Below are positions 52,026 through 64,000 of a stretch of 64,000 bases of DNA, in pieces. This DNA comes from an uncultured Candidatus Saccharibacteria bacterium. GTDB lineage: Bacteria > Patescibacteriota > JABMPQ01 > JAQVVF01. The notes under the pieces were generated by a model. That model ran no database searches and was not told the origin of the DNA. It saw only the letters and a program-made list of their open reading frames with translations. The DNA is taken from NCBI GenBank assembly GCA_964574655.1, contig CAZNOH010000002.1, positions 172,596 through 236,595 on the forward strand. The letters run 5' to 3'. The position numbers and the translations under genes are program-made. The stretch's first letter is position 1. Every line of letters starts with the position of its first letter.

Positions 52026-52865
52026 ATGTCCAATAAAATAGAAACCACAACCCAAATAGCAATTTTCCGCAAAAAAGAAATTAGAAAGACTATTCATAAA
52101 AATGAGTGGTGGTTTGTAGTTGAAGACGTGGTTTTTACATTAACTGATTCAGTCAATGTAAAAGACTATATTAATAAAATGCGCAGGCGAGATTTGGAAC
52201 TAAACAAAGGGTATGGACAAATTGTCCACACCCTTTTAATTGATACTGAGGGCGGTTCACAAAAGATGAATTGTGCCAATGCCGAAGGTCTTCTGCGTAT
52301 CATTCAATCTATTCCATCTCCCAAAGCTGAACCCTTTAAGCGCTGGTTGGCCAGAGTAGGTTATGAGAGAATTCAAGAGATTGAGGACCCTGAATTAGCT
52401 ACCAAAAGAACCAGATTTTTATACAAAGCCAAAGGATATCCTGACTCCTGGATTGCCAAAAGAATGCGTGGTATTGAGATTCGAGAAACATTAACTAATG
52501 AATGGGAAAAAAGAGGCATAAGGCAACAGAAAGAATATGAGATATTGACAGCTGAAATATCAAAAGCCACTTTTGATATGACACCTAGCCAGTATAAGAA
52601 GTTTAAGAATTTAAAGAGGGAAAATTTGCGTGACCACATGGATGATTTGGAATTGATTTTTACGATGTTGGGCGAAGCTTCAACTACAGAAATAGCCAAG
52701 GTTAAAGATGCTCAAGGATTTCCAGAAAACAAAGTAGCATCTAAAAAAGGCGGGAAAATAGCTGGCGATGCCAGACAAAAGCTAGAAAAAGAGACTGGCA
52801 AAAAAATTTCAACCAGAAAAAACTTTTTACCATCTAAAAAGAAATTTAAAAAATTAAAATCCTAA
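52026..52865 (+). CDS. Bro-N domain protein (phage antirepressor-like N-terminus) with basic C-terminal tail
   Basis: 'IAIFRKKEIRKTIHKNEWWFVVEDVVFTL' Bro-N signature. A paralog starts at 63700. Confidence 0.65.
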   Translation: MSNKIETTTQIAIFRKKEIRKTIHKNEWWFVVEDVVFTLTDSVNVKDYINKMRRRDLELNKGYGQIVHTLLIDTEGGSQKMNCANAEGLLRIIQSIPSPKAEPFKRWLARVGYERIQEIEDPELATKRTRFLYKAKGYPDSWIAKRMRGIEIRETLTNEWEKRGIRQQKEYEILTAEISKATFDMTPSQYKKFKNLKRENLRDHMDDLELIFTMLGEASTTEIAKVKDAQGFPENKVASKKGGKIAGDARQKLEKETGKKISTRKNFLPSKKKFKKLKS

Positions 52866-53000
52866 AATACCAATTTTAACTTCCATTTATCCCCAACCAA
52901 TTATCCAAAAATAAATAAACATGCTATACTAAATTCAGTCAAAATAATATAATTTAATAATGCCAAAAACAAAAAATAAAAATATGCTTATAAAAAGCCA

Positions 53001-53029
53001 AGAGAGAGAGAGAGAGAGAGAGAGAGAGA
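53001..53029. repeat. (AG)14 dinucleotide microsatellite, 76 bp upstream of the first MCP gene
   Basis: 'agagagagagagagagagagagagagaga' read directly from the sequence. Confidence 0.95.
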
Positions 53030-53104
53030 AAGAAAGTAAAATCGCGCAAATCTTTTATTATCTTTAATATCCTTATTTTTTAATTAAGGATTTTTTTATT
53101 TTAT

Positions 53105-55051
53105 ATGGCCAACCCTTTTAAAAACCTGACAATTTCTCAAAGACTAATTTTAAGTTTCGGCGGTATTGTTGTAATTCTTGCCGTAGCTTTATATATCCTT
53201 GCTTTTTTCAGCCAAAAGCAAACACAAAATTATCTAATTAAAACAGAAATAAAAGATATAGATCATTTATTTAGTTTGCATCTAGAAGAAGACAGCAAAT
53301 CTCTTTCCGCGCTTGCGCAAACTATTTCAGAAAACAAAGAATTTCAAGAAAGCTTCAAAGATAGAGACCGTGAAAAATTATATCAAGCAAGTTCGCCTCT
53401 TTTTCAAGAGCTTAAGAATCAATATGGCGTTACCAGTTTCTATTATCATTTGCCAGATAAAAATGTTTTCTTAAGAGTTCATGAAAAAGAACTATTTGGT
53501 GACAAAATGGAATGTCTTTCTCTTGAAAAAGCCGTAGAGACAAAAAAAGTCGCCTCTGGGCTGGAGCTGGAAGAAACCAATTTTCAGCTCAATGCCATTG
53601 CCCCTGTTTTCTATGAAAATAATTTAATTGGCTATCTTGAATTAGACGAAAATGTCGAACATCAAATTCAAGGACTGAAAGGCCAAAGCAATAACGAATA
53701 TGCTGTTTTGGTTGGAAAAGAGTTTTTAGATAAGGAAAAATACATTGAAGAAAAGCAAAATTTAAAGGAAGTAAATAATTGGGATGATCTTACAAATCAT
53801 GTTGTGGTTGATAGTTCTTCAGAAAATCCAGTAATGAATAAATGTTTAGCCCTATATAAAAAGGCAGAAGAAAAAGGTGAAAAAGGTACACATCAGGATT
53901 TAGGAGTATTGGGGATAATAAAAGAAAATAATAGAGATTTTAGTTGTAACCAGTCTATGTTTAAAGATAACGAGGGAAAAGAAATAGGAGAATTAGTCTC
54001 AGCGATTGAAATAACTGATATTTTGGCGCAAAGCAGACAAAACAAAAATTTAATTTTGATTTTTTCTGGAGTAATCCTCATTCTAACTTTGATTTATGGT
54101 TGGTTTATTTCCAAGTCAATTAATGATATTTTGAAAAAAGCAATCTTATCAGTTATCTCAGCGACAAAACAGCTTTCCTCTTCCGCGCAAAGTTCATCAA
54201 GCGCTTCCACCCAAAACGCCGCGACAACGCAACAAATTACCCAAGGCGCGAGTCAACAATCAAAACAGGTGGAAGAAATTTCCAAAGCCATGGCTGAAAT
54301 GTCAGCCGCTATCCAACAGATTTCCTTAGCCACAAAAGAAATCTCAAATTTAACAATAAAAACATCAGAAATGGCCCAAAAAACAGGAGAGGGCGCGGAA
54401 AAATCTCAAAAGAGATTGACTGAGATTAAAAATACTTTTGACAGCGCTAGCAAAATTGTCGCGGTATTAGCCACCAAATCAGAGCAAATTGAAAAAATTA
54501 CTGATGTTATTAACAAAATAACAGAACAAACCAATCTTCTATCATTAAACGCCGCAATTGAAGCAGCGCGAGCCGGCGAGGCAGGCCGTGGTTTTGCTGT
54601 TGTCGCTGATGAAGTGCGAAGATTAGCCGAAGGATCAGCTAAATCTGCTGAAGAGATTAGAAATCAAACTAAAGAAATGGTTGATCAAATAGAAAAAGCA
54701 ACAACTTCTTTTGAAGGAGGGGCAAAAACAACTGAAGAAAGCTCAAAAGAAATTAGTAATAATTTAACTGGTTTAGCGCAAATTACAATGAGCGTAGCGC
54801 AAATTTCCACAAAAATGCAAGATGTGTCATCCGGGGTCAAACAACAATCTGTTTCTGTTTCTGGCGTGGCAAAAAGCTTAGATTCTGTAGCCGCGATAAC
54901 CAGCCAGCATGCTTCTTCAACTCAACAGCTTTCTGCCTTATCTCAACAGTTAAATTCAGCGAATCAACAAGTCAGCGCTGCCGCGACACAGCTTAGCGGA
55001 TTAGCCAATGTTTTACAAAAACTAACGGGCGGGCAAAAGCCACAAAAATAA
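53105..55051 (+). CDS. Methyl-accepting chemotaxis protein (periplasmic sensor, 2 TM, no HAMP)
   Basis: Signalling-domain core '[36 protein letters not shown]'. 648 aa. Confidence 0.9.
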
Positions 55052-62606: not shown

Positions 62607-63075
62607 AATAATTAATGTGAAAATAGCTGAAATTAGCGTTGGTCGTAATAATGGCCTTCGATTCAAAACCGGCAGTATTGGTTCATGCGTGATCATTATT
62701 CTTTACGATAAAAAAACAAAAACTGGCGGTTTAGCCCACGCAGTTTTACCGCAAAGGCATGAGCCAAAAAAAGACCAGATAATTGAATCTCCAGCAAAAT
62801 ATGTCTGTGAAGCGATTGATAATTTAGTTTCTGAAATTAAAAAACTTGGCAGTGAGAAAAAAAATCTTCGCGCGAAATTAGTTGGCGGGGCAAGAATGTT
62901 TAAAATATTAAGCGGCGATAAATATGGCATTGGCTATCAAAATATTGAAACAGCAAAAAATAAACTGAAAGAATCAAATATTCTTATCGCACAAGAAGAT
63001 ACCGGTGGCAATACGGGAAGAACATTGGAATTTAATCTAGAAAATGGATTAGTGAAAATAATAAAAAATTTATGA
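62599..63075 (+). CDS. cheD: Chemoreceptor glutamine deamidase CheD
   Basis: 'GSIGSCVIIILYDKKTKTGGLAHAVLP' with the catalytic Cys context. Confidence 0.8.
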   Translation: MSEIINVKIAEISVGRNNGLRFKTGSIGSCVIIILYDKKTKTGGLAHAVLPQRHEPKKDQIIESPAKYVCEAIDNLVSEIKKLGSEKKNLRAKLVGGARMFKILSGDKYGIGYQNIETAKNKLKESNILIAQEDTGGNTGRTLEFNLENGLVKIIKNL

Positions 63076-63440
63076 AAGTTCTTATCATCGACGATGATCG
63101 TTTTACCAGATTAGTTTATCAGTCGCAATTATCTCAAGAAAATATTAAGGTAGACTTGGCTTGCGACGGCGAAGAAGGCTTAAAAAAAATAAAAGAAACA
63201 AAGCCAGACTTAATTTTGCTAGATATTATCTTGCCGAAAAAAACAGGTTTTGAAGTTTTAGAAAATATACAAAAAGACCCAGAACTAAAAAAAATCCCAG
63301 TCATCGTTTTTTCTTCTTTAAGCCGTCAAAGCGATATTGAAAAGGCAATGAAACTTGGCGCAAAAAAATATTTGCCCAAAGATTCCCATACCCCAAAACA
63401 AATCGTTGAAGAAATCAAGAAAATTTTAATTAAAAAATAA
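63072..63440 (+). CDS. Stand-alone response regulator receiver (CheY-like)
   Basis: REC motifs 'VLIIDDD', 'LILLDIILPKKTGFEVL', 'K'. Confidence 0.75.
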   Translation: MKVLIIDDDRFTRLVYQSQLSQENIKVDLACDGEEGLKKIKETKPDLILLDIILPKKTGFEVLENIQKDPELKKIPVIVFSSLSRQSDIEKAMKLGAKKYLPKDSHTPKQIVEEIKKILIKK

Positions 63441-63699
63441 TTTCTTTAAAAAAATCAACAAATTTTATTGAGCCAAATCAAAAGCTCATTTTTTTGCTCC
63501 ATAAACATTATTATGTTATAATAAAAAAATAATAGTTGATTGAAACATTAAAATCTGTCATCTTGAAGCAAATTTTTGAATATGACAAATCAAAATTAAC
63601 AAAAATTAATAATTATTTTTGAACAAGCGTCAGTATTGTCAAGGCGGAAGTCAGGTGTACGATAAAATCATACAACTGAAATTATAACCCAAAGTAGTT

Positions 63700-64000
63700 A
63701 TGCCCAAAAAAATAGAAACTACAACCAAAATAGCAATTTTCCGCAGAAAAGAGATTAGAAAAACTGTTAATAATAAAGAGTGGTGGTTTTCCATTATTGA
63801 CATAATAGAGGCACTAACAGGAACAGAAAGACCAAGGAAATATTGGAGTGATTTAAAGCAAAAACTTATAAAAGAAGGATATCTTGAACTGTCCGATAAT
63901 ATCGGACAGTTGAAAATGAAAGCGCCGGACGGGAAAATGAGAGAAACTGATTGCGCAAATACAGAAACGCTTTTTCGCATTATTCAATCCATACCTTCTC
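63700..64000 (+). CDS. Bro-N domain protein paralog (5' part; runs off the window end)
   Basis: 'KIAIFRRKEIRKTVNNKEWWFSIIDIIEAL...CANTETLFRIIQSIPS' is homologous to 52026..52865. The ORF-track minus-strand ORF 63651..63980 is the antisense artefact. Confidence 0.65.
   Translation, partial: MPKKIETTTKIAIFRRKEIRKTVNNKEWWFSIIDIIEALTGTERPRKYWSDLKQKLIKEGYLELSDNIGQLKMKAPDGKMRETDCANTETLFRIIQSIPS

Follow-up and report, generated by a model that had tools for sequence, protein, structure and literature searches.

An F1-like chemosensory cluster conserved across Patescibacteria, with HAMP-less receptors, a putative Af1503/Af1502-type pair, and most likely a type IV pilus output

Chemosensory pathways linked to pili include the Pil-Chp (Tfp) class, known from the Pseudomonas PilG/H/I/J/K-ChpA system, and the cyanobacterial Pix/Tax systems, which act on PilB. 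An F1 class is reportedly part of the classification of chemosensory systems made by Wuichet and Zhulin in 2010. A further described module is the Af1503/Af1502 pair of Archaeoglobus fulgidus, a HAMP-only receptor with a small STAC partner (Korycinski, Hartmann and Lupas, PMC4834066; PDB 5A1Q). The same work described an LGPx(x)A motif for STAC, found Af1502 to be too divergent for sequence or profile searches, and placed the pair in an operon with an MgtE-type transporter (PMC4834066).

Here we analyzed a 64-kb window (the whole stretch of DNA under study) that carries a che block on its forward strand with a Bro-N gene on each side. By Pfam, the block consists of two MCPs (MCP1, 53105..55051; MCP2, 55062..56516), a dCache-HAMP protein that lacks an output domain (56619..57773), a 75-aa open reading frame (57850..58077), CheW (58083..58688; Pfam CheW, 3.1e-32), CheY (58733..59092; REC), CheB (59198..60250; REC plus methylesterase/deamidase, CheB_methylest, 1e-61), CheA (60254..61963), CheC (61980..62606; CheY-P phosphatase family, 3.7e-20), CheD (62599..63075; receptor glutamine deamidase family, 6.2e-28), and a second REC protein, REC2 (63072..63440). 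An initial annotation had listed this gene content, and every gene was confirmed by Pfam except the 75-aa frame, which has no Pfam match. The matches for members of the pathway (CheA domains, CheW, MCP signaling, and REC) all exceed the curated cutoffs. The region is a Che pathway, with the Hpt, dimerization, HATPase_c, and CheW-like domains of CheA, CheW itself, the MCP signaling domain, and a CheY-type REC. CheA has one Hpt (P1) followed by P3, P4, and P5, with no P2 and no C-terminal REC. The catalytic Ser, His, and Asp motifs of CheB (GASTGGP, VQHMP, and GMGEDG), read from the translation, are all present. As had also been proposed, the sole motility genes in the window are those of a type IV pilus, namely, pilT, two pilins, and the prepilin peptidase gene pilD (23462..26446, forward strand; T2SSE, two N_methyl, and Peptidase_A24 matches); no flagellar genes were found in the 64 kb. 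The start of a pilB-like gene lies just past the window end, at L001:1767-2045 on a contig that matches this end of the window at 100% identity, and is 33 to 43% identical to the PilB N termini of relatives.

The cluster shares with the F1 class (Bacillus subtilis, Thermotoga maritima, and Archaea) its CheA-CheW-CheY-CheB-CheC-CheD gene set and a CheA and CheY that score best against haloarchaeal or T. maritima relatives; by approximate count, MCP1 may also be a receptor of the 44H length. For CheA, the NCBIfam model CheA_Halo gave 339 bits versus 262 bits for E. coli CheA, and the best PDB match was T. maritima CheA; for CheY, the best NCBIfam model was CheY_Halo. The best named homologues of CheA all belong to lineages of the ultrasmall Patescibacteria (CPR), at 42 to 56% identity, and the nearest CheAs from outside the CPR are those of Bacillota, Thermotogae, and Archaea. 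By these comparisons, the cluster appears F1-like, resembling the Bacillus/Thermotoga/archaeal class. It differs from that class in that cheR, flagellar, and archaellar genes are missing from the cluster, a 36H-length paralog sits beside the 44H receptor, and modification sites are almost always Gln, in addition to a CheA without P2 and receptors without HAMP. Four oddities stand out as lineage-wide: the lack of P2 in CheA, the HAMP-less receptors, in which TM2 leads directly on to the methylation helix, the near-invariant Gln-Gln pairs, and the lack of cheR in or near the cluster.

Both MCPs have two transmembrane helices. MCP1 joins a dCache_3-like periplasmic sensor to the signaling domain (Pfam dCache_3 and MCPsignal), and MCP2 has a helical-bundle sensor, with MCPsignal as its only Pfam match. 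The two had been noted to pass from TM2 to the signaling domain without a HAMP, and both our profile search and a structure model of MCP2 agree. Profile searches of the segments after TM2 gave no HAMP match in either protein, even at E <= 10. MCP1 aligns from residue ~346 with the post-HAMP section of full-length MCP models, the AF2 model of MCP2 shows a single unbroken helix from residue 163 to 357, through TM2 to the hairpin tip, and PF00672 (HAMP) was found in 0 of the 120 best MCP2 homologues. In Patescibacteria, the lack of a HAMP is a genuine feature of these MCPs and extends through the lineage. Counted from the approximate end of TM2, MCP1 has cytoplasmic arms of 156 and 157 residues (~22+22 heptads, 44H length) and MCP2 has arms of 128 and 125 residues (~18+18 heptads, 36H length), and the two receptors are related by a symmetric 28+28-residue indel. 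Both carry the hairpin-tip motif.

The receptors also carry 8 to 9 heptad-spaced Gln-Gln pairs, with variation rare across the lineage. At the modification sites, the MCPs of CPR loci had 82% Q, versus 32% Q and 36% E for control MCPs taken from CheR-containing loci; the profile behind this comparison was made from CPR receptors, and the sequences compared are mutually related. The presence of CheB and CheD without CheR in the window, remarked on earlier, was borne out by a CheR profile search of the 64 kb. That search found no CheR in 15 further CPR loci either (16 loci in all, ~285 kb), and the same profile detected CheR in 24 control loci from outside the Patescibacteria. CheB normally requires methyl esters made by CheR, so it is quite possible that cheR lies elsewhere in this genome; in B. 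subtilis, cheR is likewise outside the che operon.

The third gene of the block had been described as a sensor, a transmembrane helix, and a HAMP with no kinase-control module. Pfam supports this, with dCache_1 (1.1e-18) and HAMP (1.1e-14) and no MCPsignal. The Pfam HAMP match spans residues 325 to 374 of 384, and the protein ends about 5 residues after the HAMP with no output domain, as in Af1503. Its best PDB matches are the Af1503 HAMP entries (E = 4e-5). The 75-aa frame starts 76 nt 3' of this gene, in the same downstream position and 60- to 90-aa size range as the archaeal partner, and contains the LGPxxA motif as YLGPAAERF at residues 15 to 23. In nine homologues, the G, A, and A of the motif are invariant; the family comprises 304 representative clusters. 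Its AF2 model (pLDDT 97) is a small bundle of three long helices by DSSP, with the motif Pro inside the first helix. The predicted model superposes on 5A1Q, the Af1502 structure: 5a1q_A is its best geometric PDB match (TM 0.63/0.67, rmsd 2.2 A over 68 columns, probability 0.84), with a Foldseek E value of 1.8 that is not significant. In a profile search, AF1502 ranked third of 177,635 PDB sequences and was aligned on the motif, at an E value of 0.48 that is likewise not significant. Fold, motif, and gene context together suggest that the 75-aa product is an Af1502-like STAC-domain protein and that the two proteins form an Af1503/Af1502-type pair.

Receptors that likewise stop at the HAMP occur in L004, L091, L093, and L094, each time with the putative STAC gene directly 3', overlapping or up to ~10 nt away; the 76-nt gap in the window is unlike the overlapping pairs of these relatives. 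Unlike the archaeal pair, the one here is bacterial, has a dCache sensor, and sits in a che cluster instead of beside a transporter. Such a pair is an already known accessory sensing module, and in this lineage it often lies among the che genes.

The order of the che genes is the same in eight other independent Patescibacteria loci (L003, L004, L089, L091, L093, L092, L096, and L097). CheY orthologs (53 to 69% identity) lie 5' of cheB in relatives, either adjoining or after further REC genes or a HAMP-STAC pair. Directly 3' of the cluster in L004, L089, and L097 are pilB and pilC; at the locus studied here, pilB comes after the second Bro-N gene. REC2 is the ortholog of the REC that lies directly 5' of pilB in relatives; it shares 65 to 68% identity with its counterparts beside pilB in L004 and L097 versus 37% with the CheY of the window. 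The output is most likely the pilus. A dedicated response regulator, REC2, adjoins pilB-pilC, and several relatives have their entire cluster next to these genes. Like the Pil-Chp and Pix/Tax systems, this pathway lies beside, and probably acts on, the pilus motor via small REC proteins. However, CheA has a single Hpt and no C-terminal REC, unlike ChpA with its several Hpt domains and C-terminal REC. CheC and CheD are present and a PilK-type CheR is not, unlike in Pil-Chp, and REC2 has no PATAN domain, unlike in the Pix/Tax and Pil-Chp group. Membership in the Tfp class, in which a ChpA-type kinase is accompanied by PilK (a CheR) and ChpB, was rejected on the single Hpt, the lack of a REC on CheA, and the lack of CheR; the likeness to Pil-Chp, Pix, and Tax is one of functional analogy.

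The Bro-N genes had been taken to mark a recombined or mobile che module, in which case two direct repeats of ~840 bp would delimit a 10.8-kb cassette acquired or excisable by recombination. They are indeed paralogs with a similar short upstream stretch. The first (52026..52865, forward strand; 279 aa; Pfam Bro-N, E = 1.9e-13) borders the cluster on its upstream side, and the second (63700..64000, forward strand; Pfam Bro-N) is cut by the window end and complete at L001:893-1729 (278 aa). They share 74% amino acid identity (E = 4e-150), and their DNA similarity runs from ~25 nt before the ATG to near the stop codon, with ~88 to 90% nucleotide identity over the 3' two thirds. These are true direct repeats, and loss of the cluster by recombination between them is conceivable in principle. 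The family is phage associated: like BRO/Bro-N antirepressor-like phage proteins (PF02498), the first paralog carries Bro-N at its N terminus and matches a phage protein family over its full length (phrog_15286, E = 1.9e-82), and full-length relatives occur on 13 IMG/VR viral contigs. Unlike phage BRO proteins, the two copies here are chromosomal with no other phage genes around, and che genes were found within 6 kb of the Bro-N gene on 0 of those 13 contigs. Bro-N is also absent from all eight of the other Patescibacteria che loci, which keep the same gene order, an outcome that the initial annotation had itself named as refuting its reading. No integrase, transposase, or recombinase was found by Pfam in the 52- to 64-kb region. 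In GC and GC3, the che block is slightly above the window mean, as a mobile island might be, but within 1 SD of other genes, and its codon-use distance (0.051) comes close to the maximum for the window (range, 0.027 to 0.053); its composition is not clearly foreign. Finally, the gap between the REC gene and pilB is 1 to 3 nt in L004 and L097, and here the second Bro-N gene sits in it. Since REC2 is the ortholog of the pilB-adjacent REC, this Bro-N gene was inserted inside the che-pil gene string and is not its boundary. A phage-associated gene has landed twice at the cluster edges, giving the two Bro-N copies, the second of them between REC2 and pilB, and we consider a mobile island very improbable.

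The initial annotation also described a split receptor architecture and raised heteromerization of the Cache-HAMP protein with the HAMP-less MCPs. In a true split receptor, this protein would give sensing and HAMP in trans, with STAC as the coupling piece. In four of nine CPR loci (the window, L004, L091, and L093), the pair lies within the che cluster or borders it, every CPR MCP lacks a HAMP, and fusions of STAC to HAMP (P0193) and to REC (P0213) present STAC as a signaling connector, all of which would fit this arrangement. However, the other five clusters have no pair and equally HAMP-less MCPs, and thus the MCPs are independent of it. A HAMP works inside a continuous helical dimer, and we know of no case of HAMP complementation in trans, which also counts against a split receptor. 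The position of the pair within the cluster varies, in L094 it has no che gene within 10 kb, and in A. fulgidus it shares the transporter operon (PMC4834066). An Af1503/Af1502-type module fits these genes instead, and we regard a split receptor as quite unlikely. The pathway could also control something other than the pilus, as an "alternative cellular function" system acting on, for example, host attachment, cell division, or gene expression, with pilB adjacency a coincidence of packing in small genomes. Consistent with this, adjacency to pilB holds in only four of the nine independent CPR loci, unrelated genes follow the cluster in L003, L091/L093, L092, and L096, and in some relatives cheD is followed by additional REC genes but not by pilB (L092). 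Yet orthologs of REC2 lie within 3 nt of pilB in L004 and L097, a pilB-pilC-pilin-pilM string follows the cluster in three relatives that span 50 to 56% CheA identity, and neither flagellar genes nor DNA-binding output domains were found in any CPR locus examined. We think a nonpilus function unlikely.

Taking the above into account, we judge it likely that the region is the local copy of an F1-like chemosensory cluster conserved across Patescibacteria, most likely with type IV pilus output and with an Af1503/Af1502-type pair, and not a mobile island. In this model, ligand binding by the MCPs would modulate CheA, which would phosphorylate CheY and REC2, and CheC would dephosphorylate. CheD and CheB would modify the receptor glutamines as the presumed adaptation chemistry, and a second input probably reaches the pathway through the HAMP-STAC pair. 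Phosphorylated REC2 would act on the PilB extension ATPase through a putative REC2-PilB contact, and the pathway would most likely steer type IV pili and not a flagellum.

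Pfam searches recovered the same che genes that the initial annotation had listed. The first Bro-N gene (52026-52865) is followed by MCP1, a chemoreceptor with a dCache_3-like sensor (53105-55051); the second chemoreceptor, MCP2 (55062-56516); a protein with dCache_1 and HAMP domains and no MCP signalling domain (the Cache-HAMP protein, 56619-57773); a 75-aa open reading frame with no Pfam match (57850-58077); and then CheW, a CheY-type REC protein, CheB, CheA, CheC, CheD, and a further response regulator, REC2 (63072-63440). The second Bro-N gene starts at 63700 and runs past the window end. 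L001 and L002, two short contigs from public data that share 100% identity with the window end, added ~850 bp beyond it. They gave the complete second Bro-N protein (278 aa; 74% identity to the first, E = 4e-150) and, after it, a gene with a PilB/GspE ATPase-like start that is 33 to 43% identical to the PilB N termini of three relatives. As initially proposed, the only motility genes in the window belong to type IV pili (pilT, two pilins, and pilD at 23.5 to 26.4 kb), and no flagellar genes were found in the 64 kb. The other genes form an ordinary chromosomal set (radA, recG, murT/gatD, clp, recX, ligA, gatA, htrA, and others).

Additional features were recorded along the window. A scan for promoters and terminators gave counts equal to those of shuffled sequences. 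Shortly before the che operon begins, the 240-bp spacer between the first Bro-N gene and MCP1 contains a (GA)n microsatellite of ~35 nt (52995-53030). The window also has two genes for AbiEii-type toxins (29398-30024 and 50509-51424), the second having a DUF6922 partner with an open reading frame overlap of ~160 nt. The gene for a 1328-aa CBM_4_9/Y_Y_Y surface-type protein (45824-49810; GC 0.42 versus a window mean of 0.33) is the most deviant in composition among the window genes and contains ~280-bp internal repeats at 46820-47467. Imperfect intergenic palindromes of ~100 to 130 bp, 80 to 85% self-complementary, lie at 1822-1922 and 28068-28188.

The closest named CheA homologues, at 42 to 56% identity, were all from Patescibacteria (CPR), namely, Parcubacteria, Uhrbacteria, Wolfebacteria, Magasanikbacteria, and Pacebacteria. 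The nearest non-CPR CheAs among the matches listed came from Bacillota, Thermotogae, and Archaea at 37 to 42% identity. A metagenome contig scan with the single CheA returned three loci. A contig scan with a CheA alignment listed mainly Bacillota, Thermotogae, and archaeal matches and one CPR locus (L008); therefore, this set was used as a CheR-positive control and not for synteny. For synteny, we compared eight further independent loci with CheA homologues from Patescibacteria (L003, L004, L089, L091, L092, L093, L096, and L097). The core order (MCP)-CheW-...-CheY-CheB-CheA-CheC-(CheD) was kept in all eight. In L004, L089, and L097, pilB-pilC directly follows the che cluster and is itself followed by pilin genes, with pilM also present in L004 and L089. 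A REC gene lies 1 to 3 nt upstream of pilB in L004 and L097. With the window included, pilB-pilC is physically linked to the che cluster in four of nine loci. Six relatives (L003, L004, L089, L091, L093, and L096) also have a 191- to 196-aa gene between cheW and cheY that is missing in the window. It has no Pfam entry on record and matches NCBIfam CheC_Thtogales at 4.7e-16; a role for this ~193-aa gene as a pilus adaptor was ruled out, as it is CheC-like instead. L089 additionally encodes a REC fused with a CheC-like domain.

The two Bro-N genes had been read as the brackets of a mobile che module. Both proteins have full-length matches to the phage protein family phrog_15286 (E = 1e-82 and 1e-91), and a viral contig scan with the C-terminal part of Bro-N picked out 13 IMG/VR contigs (GC 0.30 to 0.62) that encode relatives matching over the full length. 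The two genes are true direct repeats; recombination between the copies could therefore delete the che block, and loss by this route is possible. We found no sign that the block arrived by Bro-N recombination, no recombinase at 52 to 64 kb of the window, and no che genes within 6 kb of the Bro-N relatives on the 13 viral contigs. The same cluster order occurs in the eight relatives, and none of their che loci has a Bro-N gene. REC2 shares 65 to 68% identity with the pilB-adjacent RECs of L004 and L097, versus 37% with the window's own CheY. As an ortholog of these RECs, it shows that the second Bro-N gene splits a REC-pilB junction that relatives keep undivided. Judged by gene order, this Bro-N gene is an insertion and not a cassette border.

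Base composition did not clearly mark the che block as foreign. The che genes have a GC of 0.359 and a GC3 of 0.290 (other genes, 0.333 ± 0.036 and 0.260 ± 0.039), and other 10-kb blocks span 0.027 to 0.053 in codon-use distance, so that the 0.051 of the che genes is within these limits, at the upper end. With no distinctive composition, recent transfer of the block was ruled out. Taken together, the mobile island reading should be dropped. The Bro-N paralogs themselves (52026-52865 and L001:893-1729) are mosaic: nucleotide identity is ~90% over the initial ~90 nt and the final ~550 nt but drops to ~45% midway through the Bro-N domain, which suggests that this stretch has recombined or undergone diversifying change.

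Both MCPs proved to lack a HAMP domain, as the initial annotation had it. The segments after the second transmembrane helix (TM2) gave no HAMP match even at E ≤ 10, and alignment of full-length MCP models to the window MCPs starts only at the post-HAMP position. From TM2 to the hairpin tip, the outgoing arm is 156 residues in MCP1 and 128 in MCP2, and the return arms are 157 and 125; because the two arms are equal in length, there is no room for a HAMP. The AF2 model of MCP2 (mean pLDDT 76) agrees: residues 163-357 form a single continuous helix that spans TM2 and connects the periplasmic bundle with the tip. Among the 120 best MCP2 homologues, none carries PF00672, whatever the sensor (dCache_1, 4HB, TarH, or CHASE3). 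By this sampling, the missing HAMP is a lineage trait. MCP1 and MCP2 lie in tandem as paralogs with 62% identity across their cytoplasmic parts; an exactly symmetric indel of 28 + 28 residues (4 + 4 heptads) around the hairpin tip distinguishes them. Thus, transmembrane receptors of about 44H and about 36H length stand beside one CheA and one CheW.

The claim that CheB and CheD are present and CheR is absent held for the window, CheB and CheD being identified by Pfam and CheR being sought by a profile search of its whole length. Using E. coli CheR and a profile from 26 matches, we recovered CheR in 24 non-CPR control loci, with E values from 1e-20 to 1e-88. The same search of 16 Patescibacteria loci (~285 kb, including the whole window) gave nothing better than E = 0.25. 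In the loci searched, cheR is therefore no member of the che cluster, and a copy elsewhere in the genomes is quite possible. The receptors themselves give an indirect hint: their methylation helices contain 8 to 9 heptad-spaced Gln-Gln pairs, and in Patescibacteria MCPs these sites hardly ever hold a residue other than Gln. In 30 such MCPs (mean identity about 33%), Gln occupied these positions in 22 to 30 sequences (in MCP2 numbering, 258/259, 265/266, 272/273, 280/281, 420/421, 427, 441, 447/448, 454/455, and 461/462). The same aligned columns were 32% Q, 36% E, and 32% other residues in 19 MCPs from cheR-containing control loci and 82% Q in MCPs from CPR loci. Invariant amides encoded in the genome would be expected where methylation cannot regenerate neutral sites; this evidence is circumstantial, because CPR receptors supplied the profile and the MCPs compared are not independent of one another by descent.

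The initial annotation also proposed a split receptor. HAMP-less MCPs and an output-less Cache-HAMP protein are indeed present, but the Cache-HAMP protein is no broken-off MCP fragment: its gene forms a pair with the 75-aa open reading frame, and one such pair was also seen without che genes nearby. The 75-aa frame is a genuine gene under conservation. Its family comprised 304 representative clusters in an exhaustive profile search (81 at E ≤ 1e-10), most members being stand-alone proteins of 73 to 100 aa, and the AF2 model of the window protein has a pLDDT of 97; together, these ruled out a spurious frame. The best geometric PDB match of the model was 5A1Q, Archaeoglobus fulgidus Af1502 (TM 0.63/0.67, rmsd 2.2 Å over 68 columns, probability 0.84), but at E = 1.8. 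In Af1503-like receptors, HAMP is the sole cytosolic part; the short proteins (60 to 90 aa) encoded downstream of them have an LGPx(x)A motif in common and are members of the STAC domain family (PMC4834066). The window protein has YLGPAAERF in the place of this motif. The family profile ranked AF1502 third of 177,635 PDB sequences, aligned on the motif at a weak E of 0.48; weak E values are expected for Af1502 according to its depositors (PMC4834066). In the PDB, the HAMP of the Cache-HAMP protein matched HAMP entries of Af1503 best (E = 4e-5).

Receptor-STAC pairs were also found in L004, L091, L093, and L094, with genes that overlap or lie no more than ~10 nt apart. The pair falls within the che cluster in four of the nine Patescibacteria loci, at varying positions, while that of L094 (9175-10231) has no che gene nearby and neighbors metabolic genes and a 7TM-PAS histidine kinase. 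Given the fold, the motif, the HAMP matches, and this recurrence also without che genes, the pair appears to be a known autonomous module. Fusions of the 75-aa family with HAMP (P0193), REC (P0213), and FHA (P0231) fit a STAC-like domain that would act as a signalling connector. Among the proteins examined (P0193, P0213, P0231, P0219, and P0138), the domain also occurs in tandem arrays of 2 to 4 copies, and the C-terminal region of P0219, for which Pfam gave no match, resembles ParA/BY-kinases on visual inspection.

In class, the cluster resembles the F1 type in having CheC and CheD and an MCP1 of about 44H length, and its CheA and CheY score best against haloarchaeal models, CheA also against T. 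maritima CheA. It differs from F1 in that the receptors have no HAMP, no flagellar genes are found at the window, no cheR was found in the window or the other CPR loci searched, and CheA (569 aa) has no P2 domain, just 75 residues of low-complexity linker separating Hpt from the dimerization domain. CheB keeps the catalytic Ser, His, and Asp motifs, as read from the translation. Pil-Chp and cyanobacterial Pix/Tax act on pilus motors, and the pathway is analogous to them but not a member, since its kinase has one Hpt and no REC and its accessory genes are F1 type.

The CheA-CheW-MCP-CheY core with CheC, CheD, and CheB is complete and conserved, and a dedicated REC orthogroup sits at the pilB junction. 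In the most probable mechanism, CheA would phosphorylate both CheY and REC2; phosphorylated REC2, and perhaps CheY, would then modulate the PilB ATPase and so pilus extension, and CheC would reset the signal. CheD and CheB would deamidate receptor glutamines, and the Af1503-like receptor with its STAC partner would add a second input. A fuller scheme, which we consider unlikely to be correct as a whole, is a CheR-less Patescibacteria pathway. Receptors would be made fully amide, with the 8 to 9 invariant Gln-Gln pairs, and their sole modification would be one-way deamidation of these glutamines by CheD and CheB, a receptor-ageing or ratchet adaptation in place of reversible methylation. Output would run from the dedicated REC to PilB, and the Af1503-type HAMP receptor would signal into the array by way of its STAC partner. 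Af1503 has been a structural model for 20 years, and we know of no output for it. The module of HAMP-only receptor and STAC protein is now placed in a defined signalling neighborhood; if the scheme is true, this would be the first defined downstream pathway for the long-orphan Af1503/Af1502 module.

Each part taken singly is from a known family, and the labels CheA and MCP are already given to these proteins in public annotations. The combination appears new: an F1-like system with no local cheR, receptors that are HAMP-less and Gln-locked, a CheA without P2, the REC-pilB junction, and an Af1503/Af1502-type pair embedded in the cluster. These several departures from textbook chemotaxis make it a compact natural test case for the essentials of receptor signalling and adaptation. 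Patescibacteria have usually been described as lacking motility and chemotaxis machinery (e.g., PMC11974145, PMC11809585), and the literature searched contained no dedicated study of chemosensory systems in Patescibacteria/CPR. A widely conserved, complete chemosensory cluster tied to pilus genes suggests that these episymbionts may steer pilus-based movement or host contact by chemical cues.
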